A DNA stretch of 32,000 nucleotides, taken from assembly GCA_963816705.1 (NCBI GenBank), contig CAWFLZ010000010.1, positions 301,764 to 333,763 on the forward strand, read 5' to 3'. Under the pieces are notes generated by a model. It had not been told where the DNA came from. It did no database searches and saw nothing but the letters and a program-made list of their open reading frames with translations. This document shows positions 2,545-22,802 of this stretch, one piece after another. Every line of letters starts with the position of its first letter. The first letter of the stretch is position 1. A program made the position numbers and the translations under genes. This DNA is from an uncultured Acidobacteriaceae bacterium. GTDB lineage: Bacteria > Acidobacteriota > Terriglobia > Terriglobales > Acidobacteriaceae.

Positions 2545-2805
2545 CTACCTGAAAACACTCTGGTTAGCGCGGCGTTTGGCGAGATCCTTGTTGGCTTTCT
2601 TGTTCGCTTTTCTCTGCGCCTTCTCGAATTTCTTCTGCGCCTTGCTTTGTTTCTTGTTGGCCTTCTTCAGCATTTTCTGCTGCTTCTCAGCGTCCTTTTT
2701 GGATTTCTTCGCGTATTGTTCAGGCGTCATGCGCTGGGCAAATGCAGGCGCGGAGCATCCGACGCTCAAGGCGGCCAGCAGCAGAAAGGCGGCGATTCGT
2801 TTCAT
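2545..2805 (-). CDS. Small Lys-rich secreted protein or lipoprotein
   Basis: ORF 2545..2832. The likely start is MKRIAAFLLLAALSVGC at 2805, giving a signal peptide with a lipobox-like SVGC. The mature part is low-complexity and K/Q/A-rich (KKSKKDAEKQQKMLKKANKKQSKAQKKFEKAQRKANKKANK). Confidence 0.55.
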   Translation of the reverse strand: MKRIAAFLLLAALSVGCSAPAFAQRMTPEQYAKKSKKDAEKQQKMLKKANKKQSKAQKKFEKAQRKANKKANKDLAKRRANQSVFR

Positions 2806-2907
2806 AACGTCTCCGACTGGGTGTCTTGACATGATCTTACAGCACGGAGCTGCCAGGAGTAACTTACTTTGGTGTTTCCGGGTTTTCGGGAGAAGGGCAG
2901 GGAATGC

Positions 2908-3225
2908 CTACCGCATCCCGCCGACGAAGATGCCACAAATGGTATTCAGCAGGAAAGCGAGCGAGATCCCAATCATGAAGCCCCGCGCCAGCATTGAACC
3001 GGCAATGTTTTGATAGGTCACGTAGCCGATGCCGCCCAGGATTCCGAGGTTGAGAATCTCGGCCACCCAAAACCGAGCCGCGCCTCTTCCTCCCTCGAGC
3101 CCCATTACGAACACGAACACCGCGACCGGAATGAGGATGCCTACCACCACTCCCAGAAACAATCCTCCGAGCAATTTGAGGATGCTGGTGCCTGCGCCGG
3201 TTGACTCGGGCAGCTGTTCAAACAT
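2908..3225 (-). CDS. Small polytopic membrane protein (about 105 aa, about 3 TM helices)
   Basis: ATG at 3225 is preceded by GAGGAG with a 7-nt spacer. It overlaps the radical SAM stop by 8 nt (ATGTTTGA). Hydrophobic helices: ILKLLGGLFLGVVVGILIPVAVFVFVMGL, ILNLGILGGIGYV, FMIGISLAFLLNTICGIFVGG. Confidence 0.65.
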   Translation of the reverse strand: MFEQLPESTGAGTSILKLLGGLFLGVVVGILIPVAVFVFVMGLEGGRGAARFWVAEILNLGILGGIGYVTYQNIAGSMLARGFMIGISLAFLLNTICGIFVGGMR

Positions 3226-4639
3226 GCGTGCGCTCCTCAATGGTATTCCGTAAAGGAACGAGCCGCTCCGCCTCCAGTTGATCGCGGTAAAAGAGGTTGT
3301 AGGTGTCGAACGGAATCAGACGCCCATCCGGAGGCACAATGTGGATGCAGCTCTTTTTCACCGAGCGAACGTCGAAGGAATAGGCATCCATGAATTGCAC
3401 AATCAAAATACGAAATATGTTCTGATATCCGATGGATTCCGGTGCGGCCAGCTGCGGCAGGCAGCACAGTAGGTCGCGCAGGCTGGTAGCGCCGCTTGCC
3501 GGAGAATGGTTGGTGGCGAAGAGCCGGAAGACGCCCTCGCGCACGGCGTCATCTTCCTCATAGACGATAGTGTTGCGGCCGCCTTCGATTAGAACTTTCG
3601 GATCGATCAGCCCGGTGAGCGGCGTGACCTTGCCGCCCATCTTAAGTGCATAAGCCATCGCCAGACAGTCGGGATGGCACGGTACCGGGATCAAATCCTC
3701 TGGTCGAAACACGGCAGACTGTTCGAGAATCTTACGCCGCACTTCCGTGAGCGTGAGGCGGTCGCGCGCGGGATCAAAATGGTCGACGCGTCCGGCGACC
3801 TGGACAGGTTGAAAGGTAACACCGCGCACGCAAGGCTGTTGCAGCGCGAAGTCGATAATGCGGCCGAGTTCCGTGTCATTGCAGCCCCGTTTCACGGTGA
3901 CGACCAGCGTCGTCGAAAGGTTGAGCGCATTCAGCCGTTCGATGGCTTCTGCGCGCGTGCGCCGGAGATCGGCGCCACGCAACTCCATCAGCGGTTCACG
4001 CTCGAAGGAATCGAATTGTAGATAGACCTCGATATCCGGCGCCGATTCGGCCAGTCGCCCGGCAAACGTCTCGTCCTGCGCGATCCGAATGCCATTGGTG
4101 TTCAACATCAGATGACGGATCGGCTGTGCCGTCGCGTAGGCCAGAATCTCGAAGAAATCTGGATGAAGCGTAGGTTCGCCGCCCGAAATCTGCAACACAT
4201 CCGGTTGGCCCTCGTTCCGCCCAACCGCGTCAATCATTTTTTTGACAAGCGGCAAAGGCCGATGTCCGCGCACAGGCGAACTTTCCGCATAACAAATGGG
4301 GCAGGTCAAATTGCAGTGGTCGTTGATTTCGACCAGCGATAGGCAGGAATGCTGTTCGTGATCGGTGCAGAGGCCGCAATCATAGGGACATCCCCACTTG
4401 ACCGGCGTGTTGTAATGCACCGGCATCTCCGGAGGCTTGAGGAAAATTTCGCGGCAGCGGCGGTAGTATTCTATATCGTCGGCGATCAGGATCTCTTCCG
4501 CGCCATGAAGCGGGCATTTCTTAAGCGGGTAGACATTCCCCTCCCGAAAGACAATTTTGCCTTCGACCTTGGCAAAGCAGCGGGAGCAGATCGACAAGAC
4601 AATGTCATAGTAAAGATAAGGTCGAACCCGTGCAGCCAT
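3218..4639 (-). CDS. Radical SAM enzyme, COG1964/class-D-like architecture (the family that includes archaeal tetraether synthase Tes/GDGT-MAS)
   Basis: CX3CX2C radical SAM motif CNLTCPIC, preceded by GCPYDCGLCTDHEQHSC. N-terminal ribbon CSRC...CPLHG and C-terminal CHPDC plus further Cys residues. ISGGEPTL glycine-rich SAM motif. ATG at 4639 has a strong SD (GGAAGGAGG, 5-nt spacer). The GTG at 4681 offered by the ORF track is less likely. Confidence 0.85.
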   Translation of the reverse strand: MAARVRPYLYYDIVLSICSRCFAKVEGKIVFREGNVYPLKKCPLHGAEEILIADDIEYYRRCREIFLKPPEMPVHYNTPVKWGCPYDCGLCTDHEQHSCLSLVEINDHCNLTCPICYAESSPVRGHRPLPLVKKMIDAVGRNEGQPDVLQISGGEPTLHPDFFEILAYATAQPIRHLMLNTNGIRIAQDETFAGRLAESAPDIEVYLQFDSFEREPLMELRGADLRRTRAEAIERLNALNLSTTLVVTVKRGCNDTELGRIIDFALQQPCVRGVTFQPVQVAGRVDHFDPARDRLTLTEVRRKILEQSAVFRPEDLIPVPCHPDCLAMAYALKMGGKVTPLTGLIDPKVLIEGGRNTIVYEEDDAVREGVFRLFATNHSPASGATSLRDLLCCLPQLAAPESIGYQNIFRILIVQFMDAYSFDVRSVKKSCIHIVPPDGRLIPFDTYNLFYRDQLEAERLVPLRNTIEERTHV

Positions 4640-4687
4640 GATCGCCTCCTTCCTGCGCATCCCGCGGCGGAAGTATGACACACACGC

Positions 4688-5459
4688 TTAGTCCGCTTTC
4701 ATCAATAGCGCGGGCGTGTCTGACGCTTTTCGCAAAACGATTCTCATCAGGTCACGCCAGCAGTATGCCACGACTCCGAGCGATGCCCATTGAAGCGCTG
4801 ACATTCCCAGGACTTTGGGTTCCGGCTTCAGAAAATCCACGCCAATGCGCCACAGCGAATAGGCAATCATGAATACTCTAAATACGTCGCCTGTCTGCCA
4901 TGTGGATCTGGCGACTGCTTTCAGCCCGTGGAAGAGCAAAGGACAAAGCAACAGGAGAAACGCGATTTCATAGAGCTGCGTTGGATGACGGCGAATGCCA
5001 TCGCCGAAATCGACCCCCCACGGAAGCGTGGTCGCATTGCCAATAGGTTTGATCGGACAGGCCTGTAAGAAAACATCCGATCCGGCCAATGGCAATGCCG
5101 AGCGCGAGGGGGATGGCAAGTAGATCCCCCGTGCGAACGCGGATGCCAATCTTGGCTTTGACTGCTTCGACCACGATCCATCCACCGATCAACGCTCCGA
5201 CTATCGTTTTTCCTCCAGTGAGCCCGGAATGCCAGGCCAAAAGAGGATCTTCGAGCCAGGCCAAAATGCGGCTGCCGAAGACGGCTCCGAAAGCGGCGGC
5301 GGCGATTACCTGCCAACGCTCGACTGGATCAATTACATCTTTGAATTTTCGTTTGAGCGCCACATAAATCTGAAACGCGATGGCATAAGCGAGTATCTCC
5401 ATCACATAGTGAGGATGGAGAGAAAGCTTCCAGATCCGGAGATACACAGGAAAGTGCAA
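4688..5459 (-). pseudogene. Prolipoprotein diacylglyceryl transferase (Lgt) family protein, split over two frames (shift near 5040-5050)
   Basis: N-terminal part is in ORF 4968..5459 (GGKTIVGALIGGW, GRIGCFLTGLSDQTY). C-terminal part is in ORF 4688..5185 (GNATTLPWGVDFGDGIRRHPTQLYE). Removing one T from tatt (about 5042-5045) joins them as ...DQTYGNATTLPWGV.... Start is TTG 5459 or GTG 5447. Confidence 0.75.
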
Positions 5460-5642: not shown

Positions 5643-8498
5643 TTAGTCGTCGTCGCCATCGGGCGCGGGATTGTTGAATTCGCTTGGTGGGCGAACCGTC
5701 TCCTCCCCTGGATAGGGCCGTGTGAACCCGGTCGATTGGTACCAGTTGAAGTGGTTGACGGTGTCCGGATCTTCGGAATCAGGCTTGCTCAGTTTGCCGG
5801 CGAAGATCTCCGCCTTCTTCTGGAGCCAAGCCGCCCTCAGAGCCTTGACCGCGGGGCTGTCGTTCGCGTGGTCATCGTTTCCTCCAACGCCCTGATCCAG
5901 CGGGACCTGGTTCGGCACGTGCGTCCAGGGCTGGAAATTGTCCGGAGGCGGCGTTCCCTTAACGAAGGCGGTCCTCATCGGCGACGCAACCAGGTCGAAC
6001 TGGTTCATGGGTGGCAGACCGAGGATTTGCTCGATCGTCCGAGTCATGTTGACCTGCGTGTAGTAAGTGTGGTCGGTCGGCCCACCTTGCACAGCATACG
6101 GGCTGACGATGTAGCCGGGGCTGCGATGACCGTCGATGTGGTCGACGCCGTCCTGCGCGTCGTCTTCCTCGATGAAGATCGCCGACGAGGACCATACGTT
6201 GCTGTGGGTGATGTAGTCGATCATGCGCCCAACGGCCAGGTCGTTATCCGCCTGTTCGGCGTCCACGCTCGGCGGACCGCCGGTGTGGTCATCCATGATC
6301 CACAGGATGCTCAAGGCGGGCACCGTGCCGGCTGCGACGTCATTGTTGAAGTCCTGCACCCACAGATCAACCCGGAACTGGTCGGGGATGCGCAGATCGA
6401 AGATCGGGAAGTTTGTCACGAGATGTTGAGACACGGCTGGGACCGAGGAGTGGGCCGTGATCGTGTTCTGATAGTAGAGCGTCTTCTCCTGGCCAGCTTC
6501 GAAGTTCTGCGAGTCCGTGTAGAAGTCGGTCCAACTCGGCTCGCCGGTCGATCCGCCCGGTTGTAGAAACGTATCGTACTCGACGTATTCGCCGTAGATC
6601 TTCGTCGACAGACCGGCGGCCTCGGCTTCCGAGAACAGGAAGCCCTTGGTTTGATAGACAAGGGCGTCCCCGGCGTTTCCGCCCGGATAGCTGCGGACCC
6701 AGTCTGGCGACTGGATGTCGTCGGCGTAGGGTGCCATGCCCTCCGTGATCCACTGATGACCATCGGCCGATTGGCGGCTCGCGTTGTAGAAGTTATCGAG
6801 CAGCGGGAAGCGCTGGATGAGCGCGTGTGCATTCGGCGTGTCCTTGCCACCAAATACTGCCAACGAGGCGTCTCCATTGCCGGCGGCCACATCGCCCAGG
6901 ATCTGATCATAGGTGCGGTTTTCACGGATGATCAGGAACACGTGCTTGATCAACGACGGATCGCCAATCTTTTTCGGAATTGCGACTGGTTTAATCTTCG
7001 GCGTCCCGCCGCTTGCAGACTGGATATTTTTGACCAGATCCCAGTGGTTGTTCCGGAAAACCCGCGCCGTCATCTGCTGCAAGGTCGCATTGCTGGGCAC
7101 AGGGATGATGCTGACGGTGCCATTGTCCTGGTGTGTGTTGTAGTCGCAGACGCCGTAAAAGCACCCGTACGAATTCAGCGTTCCAGTGCCCTTGTCGTTC
7201 GCAACGAAGAGCGTGTCACTGGCGGCGTCCAGCACGATTGAGCTGGGCGCGTAGGCTACCGGGATCATACCGATGACAGGATTCGGCACGCCGGGGACGA
7301 GGCTCACCACCGCGATCGCGTTCGCGTTGTAAAGCGCGACATAGGCAACATTATTCGCGGTATCGACGGCGATGGAATTCGGCGCGGCTCCGTAAGCCGA
7401 TTCACCGGAGCCGGGTACTCCGATGGGCAGCCCAAGGTTGATCGTCTGCGTGACCTGGTTGGTGGTCGTGTCAATCACCGAGATGGTATCGCTGTACGTA
7501 TTTGCGACCAGAAGATACTTTCCGTAGAACGCCATCCCGGTCGGGTGCAGACCGGTCGCGATAGTTGCCGTAACCGTCATCGATGGCAGATCAACCACGG
7601 AAACGGTACCGGTGATGGCGGCTCCGACCACTGAATCGGCGACGATTTCAGTCCCGGCCGAGTAGATCTGGAAGTCCGACTCCGTAGCCGCCCGGCCACC
7701 CTCGTTGCTGATGTAGGCGGTTGTGCCATTGCTCGCGATCACGATACTGTGCGGCGCGTTGCCGACGCGGATCTCCGGACCCTGGACGGGTGGCTGCGCT
7801 GTCAGATCGATTTGAGCGACGGTGTCGTTCTGATTCAGCAAGGCGTAGGCGCTCTTGCCATCCGGTGTGATCGCAACGCCGCCGGGATAAGAAGTGCTCG
7901 GAGTATAGAACGTGCCGCAGGGTATGTCGTAAGAACCCCCGGGGCTATTTGGAAAGCAGGCGATGAAAGAATTGTCCGGCGGCACGCTGACCTGGACGTC
8001 GTCGCTCAGCAAGCCCTTCGAATTGACATTCGCGATGGTGACATTGCTGCTGTCCTGGCTGAACACCAGGTACTTGCCATCGGGCGAATAGGTGATTCCG
8101 CTGTAACTGCCGGTCGGATCGTTCCCGAACGGCCGGTAGTTCTGCAAGAGTTTGCCGGTATTAACGTCGAAAATCTCGACGGCCCTCCACGCGCCCATAG
8201 TGAGAACGGCGGCCGTGTGACTCTTGAGGCTGGGGTTCAGCGCGATGGCCTTCGCGCGGACCCGCTTGCCGAGGTTCACTTGTGTGCCGGCTGGGGTGAT
8301 GATCTGGCCATCGCCGACCACCCATTCGCCCTTCCCCTGCGGCCCGGTTTGGTAGGTCGGGTAGTACTTCGACTGAGCAGCGGCGAACCCTGCACAGGTC
8401 ATCCCGGTGGCCAACCCTGTCGCCACCAGGCCGGCGAGCGGATACAGACGCTTCATCCGAGCCTTGTTTCGATTGATTCGGGACGATTTTCGAGACAT
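5643..8498 (-). CDS. Secreted fusion protein: N-terminal YncE/YVTN-type beta-propeller plus C-terminal phosphoesterase (phospholipase C/AcpA family)
   Basis: Signal peptide MKRLYPLAGLVATGLATGMTCAGFAAAQ. Repeated propeller blades (GVAITPDGKSAYAL, PHSIVIASNGTTAYISN, PTGMAFYGKYLLVAN, PNSIAVDTANNVAYVA). Phosphoesterase motifs IIRENRTYDQILG, SADGHQW, DDHTGG, EEDDAQDGVDHIDGHRSP. Confidence 0.9.
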   Translation of the reverse strand: MSRKSSRINRNKARMKRLYPLAGLVATGLATGMTCAGFAAAQSKYYPTYQTGPQGKGEWVVGDGQIITPAGTQVNLGKRVRAKAIALNPSLKSHTAAVLTMGAWRAVEIFDVNTGKLLQNYRPFGNDPTGSYSGITYSPDGKYLVFSQDSSNVTIANVNSKGLLSDDVQVSVPPDNSFIACFPNSPGGSYDIPCGTFYTPSTSYPGGVAITPDGKSAYALLNQNDTVAQIDLTAQPPVQGPEIRVGNAPHSIVIASNGTTAYISNEGGRAATESDFQIYSAGTEIVADSVVGAAITGTVSVVDLPSMTVTATIATGLHPTGMAFYGKYLLVANTYSDTISVIDTTTNQVTQTINLGLPIGVPGSGESAYGAAPNSIAVDTANNVAYVALYNANAIAVVSLVPGVPNPVIGMIPVAYAPSSIVLDAASDTLFVANDKGTGTLNSYGCFYGVCDYNTHQDNGTVSIIPVPSNATLQQMTARVFRNNHWDLVKNIQSASGGTPKIKPVAIPKKIGDPSLIKHVFLIIRENRTYDQILGDVAAGNGDASLAVFGGKDTPNAHALIQRFPLLDNFYNASRQSADGHQWITEGMAPYADDIQSPDWVRSYPGGNAGDALVYQTKGFLFSEAEAAGLSTKIYGEYVEYDTFLQPGGSTGEPSWTDFYTDSQNFEAGQEKTLYYQNTITAHSSVPAVSQHLVTNFPIFDLRIPDQFRVDLWVQDFNNDVAAGTVPALSILWIMDDHTGGPPSVDAEQADNDLAVGRMIDYITHSNVWSSSAIFIEEDDAQDGVDHIDGHRSPGYIVSPYAVQGGPTDHTYYTQVNMTRTIEQILGLPPMNQFDLVASPMRTAFVKGTPPPDNFQPWTHVPNQVPLDQGVGGNDDHANDSPAVKALRAAWLQKKAEIFAGKLSKPDSEDPDTVNHFNWYQSTGFTRPYPGEETVRPPSEFNNPAPDGDDD

Positions 8499-19576: not shown

Positions 19577-21097
19577 ATGGGAATGAAAGTAGAAAGCAGA
19601 ACCGCACAGTTCCAAACAGTTTTTGTCTTGATTCTTGTGGGCGCATTCGCCCTTTTTTCAGCGGCCAATGCGGCGGCTCAGACCGGCGCCTGGCTTTCGC
19701 ATTCGCACGATGAGCAACATACGGCCCTTTCGACCGTTCAATCACAACCGCTCAGCTCCATTCACTGGCACACGCCCGTAGACCTGTTTCCGCCGCAGGG
19801 CGAAATTTACATTCACTATGGCTCGCCGCTGGTCACAGCCGCCAATACCGTAATCGTCCCGGTAAAGACCGGCACGAACAGTTTCCGCGTCGAGGCCATC
19901 AACGGCACGACCGGCAAAAAAGTTTGGCAGCTCAACACCGGCTGGCAGGCGCCAGGTGCAACTTTTGTCCCAGGACTCGGCCCGACCATTTCCGGCAGTA
20001 CCCTTTATGTTCCCGACATCGCAGGCCGGGTCATTGCGCGCCCGAATCCCGACGAAAAGAAACAGAAGGCCAGCAAGCTCTATTTTTATGGGGTAAAGAA
20101 CTTCAAAAAGAATCGGGCGGCGTACGAAGCCAACGTCCAGATCAACACGCCCCTGACCACCGACGCGGCCGGCAATCTCTTCTTCGGCTTCGACATCCTC
20201 GGCTCGACGCCCCTGAATCTCAAGGGCGGCCTGGCGCGCATCGGAACCGATGGCACAGGAACCTGGGTCTCGGCCGCCAGTCTGAGCGGCGATAACTCGG
20301 TCTACGAAGTTTCCATGAGCGCCGCGCCCGCCCTCTCGCTCGACGGCAGCATCGTGTATGTCTCGGTCGATAACGGCGATTACGGCTATCTGGTCGCGGT
20401 CAACAGCGCAACCCTCGCCCCGATCCACAAAGTCCTGATGAAGGATCCTTCCTCGGGACTGAATGCCATCGTCTTCGACGCCAGCTCCGCCTCGCCCACC
20501 GTTGGCCCGGATGGCGACGTCTACTTCGGCGTCATCGAAAATCCCTTCCCCAATCACAACGACCGCGGATGGCTCCTGCACTACAACGCCGACCTCACCC
20601 AGACCAAAATCCCGGGCAGCTTCGGCTGGGACGACACGGCTTCGGTTGTCCCGTCGTCGATGGTGCCAAGCTATACCGGCACGTCGACCTATCTGCTGAT
20701 GACCAAATACAACAACTATTGCGGTGTGGGCAACGGCAACGGAAAAAACGAGATTGCGATTCTCGATCCGAATGCCACCGAGCACGATCCGATCATTCCC
20801 AATACATTGGTCATGAACGAAGTGCTGACCCACGTCGGCGTGACGCCGGATCAGGATTGTCCGGGAGGTGTAAGAGAGTGGTGCATCAACACGGCCGCCA
20901 TCGATCCCTTCACGAAGTCGGTAATGGCCAACAGCGAAGACGGCAACCTCTATCGCTGGGACCTGACCACCAATACCTTCACCCAGGTGGTACCCCTTTC
21001 CACCGGCGTCGGAGAAGCCTATACGCCAACCGTCATCGGCGCAGATGGAACGGTCTACGCGATCAACGACGCGATTCTGGATGCGATCGGAAAATAG
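19577..21097 (+). CDS. Secreted beta-propeller-like hypothetical protein (506 aa)
   Basis: Signal peptide VFVLILVGAFALFSAANAAAQ. Recurrent strand-turn motifs (DAAGNLFFG, SLDGSIVYVS, GPDGDVYFGV, SEDGNLYRWD, GADGTVYAIN) typical of PQQ/propeller blades. Confidence 0.8.
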   Translation: MGMKVESRTAQFQTVFVLILVGAFALFSAANAAAQTGAWLSHSHDEQHTALSTVQSQPLSSIHWHTPVDLFPPQGEIYIHYGSPLVTAANTVIVPVKTGTNSFRVEAINGTTGKKVWQLNTGWQAPGATFVPGLGPTISGSTLYVPDIAGRVIARPNPDEKKQKASKLYFYGVKNFKKNRAAYEANVQINTPLTTDAAGNLFFGFDILGSTPLNLKGGLARIGTDGTGTWVSAASLSGDNSVYEVSMSAAPALSLDGSIVYVSVDNGDYGYLVAVNSATLAPIHKVLMKDPSSGLNAIVFDASSASPTVGPDGDVYFGVIENPFPNHNDRGWLLHYNADLTQTKIPGSFGWDDTASVVPSSMVPSYTGTSTYLLMTKYNNYCGVGNGNGKNEIAILDPNATEHDPIIPNTLVMNEVLTHVGVTPDQDCPGGVREWCINTAAIDPFTKSVMANSEDGNLYRWDLTTNTFTQVVPLSTGVGEAYTPTVIGADGTVYAINDAILDAIGK

Positions 21098-21165
21098 AAG
21101 TGACGCGGGCCTTGCTTTTGAACGCTGACACAAAAGAACTGGGGGTGCCCCACCTTTCGCGTCGT

Positions 21166-22802
21166 GAAGCTGTGAAAAAACCACCGGCGAAGTTAATTGA
21201 CAGAGTTGAGAAGCAGGGTAAGCTCGGGGCATGAGCGAGCCCCTAATCCGCAGGATCAATCGCGAGCAGATGTGTTGGCGAGCCGTGGATGTGGAGCAGT
21301 TGATCGAAGAGGGTCATCCGGCGCGGGCCATCTGGGAACTGGTGGGGCGGCTGGATCTGGAGGGTTTCTACGCGGGCATCGAATGCAGCGCCGAAGAAGG
21401 AGGGCGTCCCGCCTATGATCCCCGCTTGCTGATCAGTCTGTGGATTTATGCCTACAGCCAGGGGATCGGGTCGGCGCGGGAGGTGGCGCGGCGCTGCGAG
21501 TGGGAACCGGCGTTCGAGTGGCTGACGGGCTGCGAAACCGTGAACTACCACACGCTGTCCAGTTTCCGAGTGGAGTATCGGGCGGAGTTAGATGAGTTAT
21601 TCACGCAGGTGCTGGCGCTGATGAGCGCGGAAGGGCTGATCACACTGGAGCAGGTGGTGCAGGACGGGACCAAGATCAAGGCGCAAGCGGCGAGCGACAG
21701 CTTTCAAGGCGAGGCGAAGATTGCGGAGCATCTGGAGCGGGCGCGACGGCGCGTGCGCGAGATGGGGGAACCGGATCAGGAAGAAGGGGGGAGCCGGGCG
21801 GAACAGGCACAACGGCGAGCGCGACGCGAGCGGCAACAGCGGTTGGAGCAGGGACTCGAAGAGCTGCAGAAACTGCGTCCCAGCAAGCCACGGGCGCGGG
21901 TGAGCGTGAGTGAACCGGAGGCGCGCCGGATGCGGCAGGCCGACGGGGGCATCGCGCCCAACTACAACGTGCAAATCTCGGCCGATGCAGCGCAGTCGCT
22001 GATCGTGGACGTGAAGGTGACACAAGCCGCCAATGACAGCGAGCAACTGGCGCCGGCCGTCGGACGTATCGCCGCTCGACTGGGCCGCAAGCCGCGACAG
22101 ATGCTGGCCGATGGAGACTTCACCAATCGCCGCAGCATCGAGGCGATGGCGGAGTTGGAAGTGGATTACGTGGGCAGCTTACGCAAAGGCGGCGCGGAGA
22201 AAGACAACACCGGCACCGGACGTTTCACGGCTGCCGTCTTCGTCTACGATCCCGAGCACGATCGCTACTCGTGTCCGGGAGGCAAGCATCTCCGTTACGA
22301 AGGACGGCACAAACACAAGACGGGAAACTTTTTCTACCGCTATGAAGCCCGCGCCGAGGACTGTCAGAGCTGTCCGCTGCAACCGCAATGTTGTCCAAGC
22401 AATCAGCATCGCGGCCGTGGACTGTTGCGCACCGAAGAAACCGCGGCCATGATCGCCTTTCGCCAGAAGATGGCTACACCCGAGGCGCAGCAGCAGTATC
22501 GCCGACGCAGCCGGGTGATCGAGTTCTGCCACGCCTGGATCAAAAGCAAACTGGGATTGCGCCAGTTCCACCTGCGCGGCCTGGCCAAAGTGCAAATGGA
22601 AATGCTCTGGGCCTGCCTCACCTACAACCTGCAACAATGGATTCGCCTGCGCAAACTACAACCCGCAACCGCCTAACCCCGCAGCGAGAAATCGAGAAAC
22701 ACCTTGCGCCAATCAAACTACCCCTCCAGTCCCCGCAACCCCTTCACCAACCCGCGCTCTTTCTTATTTAGGGGTTGCCGAAGACGGTTTTTTCACAGCT
22801 TC
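21166..22802 (+). mobile_element. IS1182-family (IS5-like) insertion sequence, about 1.64 kb, with 17-bp perfect terminal inverted repeats
   Basis: IRL GAAGCTGTGAAAAAACC (21166-21182) is the reverse complement of IRR ggttttttcacagcttc (22786-22802). There is a single transposase ORF between them. Confidence 0.85.
21231..22676 (+). CDS. IS1182-family DDE transposase
   Basis: N-terminal InsH-like domain (GRPAYDPRLLISLWIYAYSQGIGSAREVARRCEWEPAFEWL), an E/R-rich coiled linker, and a C-terminal Cys motif (CQSCPLQPQCCPS) followed by EFCHAWIKSKLGLRQFHLRGLAKVQMEMLWACLTYNL. Confidence 0.9.
   Translation: MSEPLIRRINREQMCWRAVDVEQLIEEGHPARAIWELVGRLDLEGFYAGIECSAEEGGRPAYDPRLLISLWIYAYSQGIGSAREVARRCEWEPAFEWLTGCETVNYHTLSSFRVEYRAELDELFTQVLALMSAEGLITLEQVVQDGTKIKAQAASDSFQGEAKIAEHLERARRRVREMGEPDQEEGGSRAEQAQRRARRERQQRLEQGLEELQKLRPSKPRARVSVSEPEARRMRQADGGIAPNYNVQISADAAQSLIVDVKVTQAANDSEQLAPAVGRIAARLGRKPRQMLADGDFTNRRSIEAMAELEVDYVGSLRKGGAEKDNTGTGRFTAAVFVYDPEHDRYSCPGGKHLRYEGRHKHKTGNFFYRYEARAEDCQSCPLQPQCCPSNQHRGRGLLRTEETAAMIAFRQKMATPEAQQQYRRRSRVIEFCHAWIKSKLGLRQFHLRGLAKVQMEMLWACLTYNLQQWIRLRKLQPATA

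Follow-up and report, generated by a model that had tools for sequence, protein, structure and literature searches.

The 32,000-nucleotide stretch of DNA analysed here (the window; positions 301,764 to 333,763 of contig CAWFLZ010000010.1, assembly GCA_963816705.1, from an uncultured Acidobacteriaceae bacterium) encodes a conserved, uncharacterised three-gene membrane module. It consists of an enzyme of the radical S-adenosylmethionine (SAM) type (rSAM) with the fold of tetraether synthase (Tes), a paralog of the prolipoprotein diacylglyceryl transferase Lgt, and a small membrane protein with a conserved Cys residue. The link between the Tes-fold rSAM and an Lgt-family protein with a phospholipid-binding core is obligate and often covalent. 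We propose, with a probability of roughly 40%, that the three gene products form a single membrane machine in which radical chemistry alters a glycerolipid's hydrocarbon tail, the diacylglyceryl unit being supplied by the Lgt paralog. The initial annotation of this DNA had read the triad as a candidate module for membrane-spanning lipids of the branched glycerol dialkyl glycerol tetraether (brGDGT) type; the wide host range of the triad and the features that set its rSAM apart from Tes argue against that reading.

Conservation of the Triad and Its Fusions

An exact look-up of the window's protein matched no recorded gene, and the comparisons were accordingly made with relatives. In relatives at 94%, 87%, and 78% identity, an intact Lgt paralog (233-296 aa), the rSAM gene, and an overlapping small open reading frame (ORF) were all present, and the surroundings otherwise differed. 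The genome scan took one genome per species and was capped at 600 stretches, and its best 80 loci had 58-77% identity. An Lgt-like gene lay within 5 kb in 68 of these 80 loci, which represented at least eight phyla, and mostly stood immediately upstream in the same orientation; of the 12 loci without a nearby Lgt gene, four or five are truncated by contig ends. All-versus-all clustering of the neighbouring ORFs in the 80 loci identified the Lgt paralog and small hydrophobic ORFs as the only conserved neighbours. The hosts of these loci included Acidobacteriota, Myxococcota, Planctomycetota, and Flavobacterium; the genera Paenibacillus, Brevibacillus, Neobacillus, Niallia, Heyndrickxia, Fictibacillus, and Gottfriedia; Oleiagrimonas, Rhodanobacter, Dyella, Undibacterium, and Parachitinimonas; and the heterocystous cyanobacteria Fischerella and Cylindrospermum. 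Orthologs at 58-68% identity occurred in Paenibacillus, Bacillaceae, Rhodanobacteraceae, heterocystous cyanobacteria, Flavobacterium, and Betaproteobacteria, indicating that the module is confined neither to Acidobacteriota nor to known producers of membrane-spanning lipids.

The Lgt and rSAM components were also found within one polypeptide. P0124 is a single 733-aa LGT-ribbon-rSAM protein, and a search with this sequence recovered Lgt-Zn-ribbon-rSAM fusions in at least 57 distinct clusters, with lengths of 656-825 aa. They came from Tepidisphaerales and Verrucomicrobiota, among others, and some were located on megabase-sized contigs, the longest of 6.2 Mb. NCBI labels these fusions only as 'prolipoprotein diacylglyceryl transferase family protein'. 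In a structural model of the fusion, the N-terminal domain matched E. coli Lgt (5AZB). Where the disordered linker begins, right behind the last Lgt helix, stands a CC pair (residues 246-247 of P0124), and its two residues were Cys in 57/57 and 56/57 fusions.

The trio recurred at 42%, 38%, and 37% identity with other gene orders, twice together with a membrane methyltransferase of the ICMT (isoprenylcysteine carboxyl methyltransferase-like)/PEMT type. Together with the 68 loci and the fusions, these recurrences bear out a conserved three-gene neighbourhood, for which the initial annotation had proposed a check. Two other branches carried methyltransferases and UbiA or DsbD-like genes and no Lgt gene. 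In sister clades, too, the rSAM is accompanied by enzymes of lipid type (CMAS-like methyltransferases, UbiA, and ICMT/PEMT), which we count in favor of a lipid-altering machine.

Individual features of the distant loci were also recorded. In L094 (3604-7215) and L095, at 37% identity, the operon consists of a small Cys protein, the rSAM, an ICMT/PEMT-like methyltransferase, DUF4395, and the Lgt paralog; the best match of the methyltransferase was protein-S-isoprenylcysteine O-methyltransferase (87 bits, below the cut-off), and it weakly resembled the methanethiol methyltransferase MddA. L087 (502-5408; 38% identity) encodes a small protein ending in AGVVCY, the rSAM, an Lgt paralog with GRIGC, an ArsP_1 permease, and a YeeE-like-ICMT fusion, and this branch may hint at sulfur or metalloid chemistry. 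P0265 (688 aa) is a superfamily member with a C-terminal DUF5714 fusion, another uncharacterised architecture.

The literature searched contained no tetraether synthase associated with a diacylglyceryl transferase and no Lgt paralog with an rSAM partner, and NCBIfam held no model for the Lgt paralog or the small protein. As the initial annotation had supposed, the triad appears to be undescribed. It is best regarded as a lipid rSAM of the Tes superfamily with two dedicated membrane partners.

Fold and Metal Sites of the Radical SAM Enzyme

The rSAM is a 473-aa protein with the Pfam domains Zn_ribbon_HMPTM and Radical_SAM, and all four Cys groups reported by the initial annotation were present in its sequence. 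These are C18-x2-C21-x20-C42-x2-H45; GC84PYDC88GLC91TDH94EQH97SC99; the radical SAM (RS) motif C109NLTC113PIC116; and PC321HPDC325, with C392/C393 and C431 further on. By sequence, its only solved relative was GDGT-MAS (7TOL, E 1e-63), with aligned blocks at residues 14-322 and 404-464. An AlphaFold model built from a 76-sequence alignment had a predicted local distance difference test score (pLDDT) of 90 and a predicted template modelling score (pTM) of 0.90. The model superposed on 7TOM and 7TOL over its full length, in ~500 alignment columns (TM-scores 0.80 and 0.76; E 2e-41), and the match included the lipid-pocket C-terminal domain, whereas all other PDB structures matched the RS core alone with TM-scores of at most 0.40. 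Four domains were recognised in the model: one that is rubredoxin-like, an N-terminal auxiliary cluster domain, the RS core, and a C-terminal auxiliary domain. The presumed kinship to Tes/GDGT-MAS therefore holds as structural homology along the whole chain. A defence-system reading of the rSAM was dropped; the PADLOC similarity was merely that of a generic viperin-like rSAM.

In GDGT-MAS, the rubredoxin-like Fe is ligated by C9X2C12X20C33X2H36, the [4Fe-4S]N cluster by C73, C77, C80, and one His, and the RS cluster by a CX3CX2C motif (PMC9433317). The window equivalents are C18, C21, C42, and H45; C84, C88, and C91 with H94/H97; and C109, C113, and C116, respectively. As judged by this alignment, the rSAM carries three of the four GDGT-MAS metal sites, with cofactor motifs that match the published ones exactly. 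The layout of three 4Fe-4S clusters and a rubredoxin-like site, which the initial annotation had named for Tes, is thus retained at three sites and differs at the C-terminal one. In the C-terminal region, the window clade conserves Cys321 (PVPCHP), Cys392/393 (LLCCLP), and Cys431, and a third cluster with rewired ligands is plausible.

Placement of the rSAM outside Tes and TrsS

The rSAM scored 258.5 bits against the Tes profile NF045702 (cut-off 450), and only residues 15-332 matched well. Its best NCBIfam match was the TrsS profile NF045646, with 299.5 bits (cut-off 490) across profile positions 16-451. An NCBIfam scan of 30 diverse superfamily representatives assigned 481 and 556 bits to the verified Tes representatives P0257 and P0260, and 490-607 bits to the verified TrsS representatives P0234, P0255, P0259, and P0268. 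In a neighbour-joining distance tree of 76 sequences, constructed without support values, Tes and TrsS formed sister groups, and the window rSAM fell in a tight clade on another branch. Profile and tree thus speak against membership in Tes itself. With its HMPTM-type Pfam ribbon, the window rSAM belongs in the superfamily ('class D' group IPR034474, discussed in PMC9433317) and in neither of its named families.

The Lgt Paralog and Its Frameshift

The initial annotation had described one Lgt-family gene ending 48 nt upstream of the rSAM ATG. The position of the stop was right; however, the gene is not a single ORF, and a frameshift had been missed. Its three quoted motifs do not share a frame: GRIGCFL is read in frame A, and LPWGV and RHPTQLYE in frame B. 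The frame A ORF contains the family-conserved His17 and GR126IGC129F, as identified in an alignment of 66 paralogs, loses register after ~5043, and stops at 4968. The frame B part contains GNATTLPWGVDFGDGIRRHPTQLYE and Y..R, the latter equivalent to E. coli Y235 and R239. Both halves exceeded the Pfam LGT cut-off of 24.9 bits (frame A, 38 bits, 1.4e-09, profile positions 1-133; frame B, 44 bits, 1.7e-11, positions 137-232), and they jointly covered positions 1-232 of 240. Alignment with the intact orthologs L090 and L001 revealed one extra T (ACCTAtTGGC versus ACCTA-CGGC), which breaks the reading frame by +1; intact orthologs read TA(C/T)GGC at this site.

We compared substitution rates with the 94%-identical relative L090. 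The dN/dS ratio was 0.07 for the rSAM gene, 0.20 for the small gene, and 0.11 for the Lgt paralog minus the extra T (0.09 and 0.14 for its halves), and all three genes are under purifying selection. These values bear on the explanation that the module is a recently inactivated remnant in the window genome, to which we assign close to an even chance. The identical frameshift occurs in L091, a 100%-identical contig from another assembly, and is implied in a Logan contig, in which only the 165-aa C-terminal half was called; moreover, the insertion site is no long homopolymer. In contrast, selection on both halves is strong and no second lesion was found, the rSAM and small genes are intact, and the contig names suggest long-read assemblies, which can contain indel errors. 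Because both halves are otherwise undamaged, the lesion either arose very recently or reflects an erroneous consensus. In the window genome, this frameshift may leave the module without activity. Programmed frameshifting was also considered and rejected; it would require a +1 shift, and by its sequence the site appears to offer no stop, rare codon, or known +1 context.

Residue conservation was assessed in the 66 aligned paralogs, with an E. coli Lgt sequence as reference that was compared with the 5AZB alignment. Conservation was 100% at the positions of R143, H196, Y235, and R239, the E202 position was E or D in all 66 paralogs, and the E243 position was also acidic. Other positions have changed: E. 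coli Y26 is replaced by His (91%), H103 by Val (89%), and N146 by Cys (66/66). Alignment with E. coli Lgt and the positive-inside pattern of the fusion sequence predict that the C-terminus of the Lgt paralog is cytoplasmic, which fits a cytoplasmic rSAM.

The Small Membrane Protein

The third gene was seen as described initially: its start at 3225, inside ATGTTTGA, gives an 8-nt overlap with the rSAM stop, and it encodes a hydrophobic protein with two to three predicted transmembrane (TM) helices. Its conserved Cys had been overlooked. The last helix of the window protein ends with LLNTIC-GIFVGGMR, a version of the family motif LLN[AG][AGST]C, which at the final helix takes the form LLN[AG][AGST]C[FW]G or LVAACFG. 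The motif Cys was present in 34/35 small-protein sequences, and in most of the 35 it was preceded by A/G at position -2 and A/T/S/G at position -1; position -3 was Asn in 20/34 proteins, and the window copy reads N-T-I-C. The Cys lies 16-24 residues past the last charged residue, and the mean net charge is +3.1 in the 10 residues before the helix and +0.4 in the tail after the Cys. In sequence terms, this layout resembles that of a lipoprotein signal peptide whose end is lipobox-like. The canonical lipobox is [LVI][ASTVI][GAS]C, and the motif here belongs to the last helix and not to the N-terminus.

Roughly half of the loci encoded a small protein downstream of the rSAM, some of them two copies of it, and in about half no small Cys protein was detected with the filters used. 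Two tandem small Cys-motif proteins follow the rSAM in loci L027, L055, L056, L067, and L084. In one acidobacterial subgroup, an alternative small protein, with SLGLCG ending its first helix, is encoded between the Lgt paralog and the rSAM.

Proposed Mechanism

In the machine that we propose, the Lgt paralog, with seven TM helices, would bind phosphatidylglycerol or a similar phospholipid via its retained Lgt arginines. It would then present the diacylglyceryl unit or, in the manner of Lgt, transfer it to a thiol, for which the conserved Cys of the small membrane protein would be the likeliest acceptor. The cytoplasmic rSAM would dock on the C-terminus of the Lgt paralog, to which it is fused in many bacteria, cleave SAM, and take a hydrogen atom from the end of an acyl chain. 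A new bond would subsequently be formed with the aid of a putative C-terminal auxiliary cluster, by analogy with the cluster-sulfur intermediate of Tes (PMC13459092). The leading candidate product would be a tail-to-tail coupled lipid, either membrane-spanning or macrocyclic. In a more specific version, which we consider a long shot, the Lgt paralog would S-diacylglycerylate the last-helix Cys and the rSAM would join the tethered tails with one another or with an opposite-leaflet lipid. If this were true, the product would be a protein-anchored macrocyclic or membrane-spanning lipid, and soil bacteria from many phyla would widely share a new class of lipoprotein or bolalipid biosynthesis in which a protein serves as lipid carrier.

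Several points weigh against the proposed machine. Every member of the module enters the proposal through its sequence and predicted structure. The active site of Lgt and the Cys of the small protein would face the outer leaflet and the rSAM the cytoplasm, which leaves the path of tail hand-over unexplained. In the rSAM, the labile Met439 of Tes aligns to Val414, and Tyr459, which is strictly conserved in ~1000 archaeal Tes homologs, aligns to Ile434 and is Ile or Leu throughout the window clade. The Tes motifs SCM, RCC, and PFC correspond to Ile413, Ser430/Cys431, and Asp445, so that C438, C455, and C470 of Tes are lost and C456 alone is kept, as Cys431; the assignment of these Tes cysteines as cluster ligands is itself deduced from the alignment. 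We can only infer the third cluster because the CC pair at 392/393 sits in the sole low-confidence loop of the model (residues 374-400, pLDDT <50). The fusion model reached a pTM of only 0.64, with a disordered linker and no confident interface, and we therefore make no claim about an interface. In the Lgt paralog, the replaced residues include Y26 and N146, which are reported to be essential in E. coli Lgt, and the Cys at the N146 position was present in only 47/57 fusions. Finally, some hosts, among them cyanobacteria and Paenibacillus, are not known to make membrane-spanning lipids.

Alternative Functions

A different function for the same parts would be dedicated protein lipidation, in which the Lgt paralog S-diacylglycerylates the small protein and the rSAM then alters it by an acyl-tail cross-link or a thioether, bulk lipid not being the target. 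We regard this as unlikely, although it accounts for several observations. The signal-peptide-like helix with [A/G][A/G/S/T]-Cys is kept across phyla in two unrelated types of small protein, the core residues of Lgt are kept, ICMT-type genes lie inside two related operons, and the small protein of one related locus ends in VVCY. On the other hand, the Asn frequent at position -3 is not a canonical lipobox residue, the motif belongs to a C-terminal helix and not to an N-terminal signal peptide, the small Cys protein was detected in only part of the loci, and Y26, H103, and N146 of Lgt are replaced.

The reading of the initial annotation, an acidobacterial synthase of iso-diabolic acid or brGDGT-type lipids to which the Lgt paralog supplies diacylglycerol lipid, is improbable. 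The Tes-like fold agrees with it, and the family is very abundant in Terriglobales and soil metagenomes, with at least 8000 matches, the top 120 of which all had at least 71% identity. Bacillales, Flavobacterium, Rhodanobacteraceae, Myxococcota, and Acidobacteriota are rich in iso-C15 fatty acids, the ends of which resemble phytanyl. However, orthologs also occur in cyanobacteria and Betaproteobacteria, which are not known to have iso-fatty acids or membrane-spanning lipids. Only one cultured acidobacterium was found among the best 80 genome loci of the scan of at most 600 stretches, and the rSAM stands outside the Tes clade without Tyr459 and Met439. Bacterial Tes homologs were proposed for brGDGT synthesis by Zeng et al., and the brGDGT producer Edaphobacter aggregans has one distant Tes homolog (32% identity, 4e-61; PMC8941075), whose divergence from archaeal Tes is similar to that of the window rSAM. 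In a survey, in contrast, only 3/14 iso-diabolic-acid-producing acidobacteria had Tes homologs (PMC13159169), and none of the bacterial homologs has been tested so far (PMC11868695). A specific role of the module in brGDGT or iso-diabolic acid synthesis is weakly supported. Given how many soil bacteria carry the module, it probably represents a new system for modifying lipids or lipoproteins and not specifically the long-sought source of brGDGTs.

The least probable alternative is that the rSAM acts on a non-lipid substrate, with sulfur, selenium, or metalloid chemistry as hinted for TrsS and with its partners serving as membrane anchor or thiol relay: the full-length TrsS match, the related operons with ArsP, a YeeE-like-ICMT fusion, DsbD_TM, and a MerT-like protein in which an LLCC motif occurs, the weak resemblance of an ICMT-like neighbour to MddA, and the vicinal CC conserved in the rSAM (C392/393) and, in fusions, just past TM7 would fit it, but a verified TrsS locus has no Lgt gene, the window clade and TrsS lie on different branches, the window-type triad had no transporter or methyltransferase partner in the 80 loci, and the C-terminal lipid-pocket domain of GDGT-MAS is kept.

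These results matter because brGDGTs underpin widely used palaeotemperature and pH proxies, and bacterial relatives of Tes have long been invoked as their possible makers. The largest soil clade of bacterial Tes homologs is not a stand-alone Tes but part of an obligate three-component membrane system, in some cases a single fused polypeptide. Tests of these homologs should accordingly take the three genes jointly and examine both the lipids and the small protein, and caution is advisable in counting soil-clade genes as brGDGT markers in metagenomes. The triad possibly connects, in a new way, chemistry of the lipoprotein type with radical reactions on lipid tails.

Layout of the Module and Other Features of the Window

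The coordinates of the module are listed in Table 1. A promoter and terminator scan yielded nothing exceeding shuffled expectation, no tRNA genes were found in the window, and the remainder of the window contained no lipid-pathway context.

Table 1: Positions of the module components in the window.
Feature	Position	Strand	Remarks
rSAM gene	3218-4639	minus	473 aa; ATG at 4639, TGA 3218-3220
AGGAGG ribosome-binding site	4650-4645	minus	5 nt 5' of the rSAM ATG; read from sequence
Lgt paralog, N-terminal part (frame A)	4968-5459	minus	TTG start at 5459; from ORF list, Pfam, and family alignment
Lgt paralog, C-terminal part (frame B)	4688-5041 (ORF 4688-5185)	minus	Stop 4688-4690; from Pfam and conservation table
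Frameshift site in Lgt paralog	5042/5043	minus	One extra T relative to intact orthologs
Small membrane protein	2908-3225	minus	105 aa; overlaps the rSAM stop by 8 nt

Directly upstream of the Lgt paralog, a gene at 5643-8498 (minus strand) encodes a protein of 951 aa that has beta-propeller repeats and, at its C-terminus, a Phosphoesterase domain (PF04185). This gene was also found in the same-species contig L091, and it does not adjoin the module in the relatives L001 and L090. Just downstream of the triad, a 95-aa ORF (2545-2832, minus strand) has an N-terminal signal-like segment and an extremely Lys-rich tail (KKSKKDAEKQQKMLKKANKK...), and both L090 and L091 have 86-aa ORFs called at the matching place. 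At 21231-22676 (plus strand), where the GC skew jumps locally (+0.20 in 21001-22000), the window carries a DDE transposase gene of the IS type (DDE_Tnp_1_6, DDE_Tnp_1, DUF772).

Comparison with Known Systems

The window rSAM shares with GDGT-MAS/Tes (MJ0619; 7TOL/7TOM) the four-domain architecture, the fold, the CX2CX20CX2H and CX3CX2C + His motifs, and the RS motif, and the C-terminal block FMDAY...CIH...IPF.TYN is conserved in it. In contrast, it is 29% identical, is ~34 residues shorter between the two aligned blocks, and has gained C392/393; C321, which it has kept, is widespread among bacterial relatives. Papers on Tes/GDGT-MAS, which were the basis of this comparison rather than gene neighbourhoods, mention neither an Lgt paralog nor a small Cys protein for archaeal Tes.

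TrsS (NF045646; Haft and Tolstoy 2025) belongs to the same superfamily, has the same N-terminal cofactor motifs, and its profile matches the window rSAM over the full length. Verified TrsS sequences, however, group with Tes and not with the window clade, and in the verified TrsS locus L092 (40-3833), the genes flanking TrsS encode a C_GCAxxG_C_C protein, a SAM methyltransferase, and an MFS transporter; an Lgt gene is absent.

Like Lgt (PF01790; E. coli 5AZB), the paralog has the Pfam LGT domain, the layout of seven TM helices, invariant R143/H196/Y235/R239, and acidic residues at the E202 and E243 positions. Unlike Lgt (TIGR00544), it scores far below the equivalog cut-off of 118.9 bits (41-52 bits for intact close orthologs and 81 bits for one distant-branch ortholog), has replaced Y26, H103, and N146, and is paired with or fused to an rSAM. 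Its presumed acceptor would be a small polytopic protein instead of secreted prolipoproteins.

Mss (Sahonero-Canavesi et al. 2022), from Thermotoga and Thermoanaerobacter, is an rSAM proposed to couple the acyl tails of ester phospholipids (PMC13159169, PMC13459092). It was described as a distinct enzyme; a search for Tes homologs in those organisms found none, and neither was an mss homolog found in Acidobacteria (PMC13159169). The kind of reaction that we propose for the window module, radical coupling of acyl tails, would resemble the one proposed for Mss, a likeness taken from the published descriptions.

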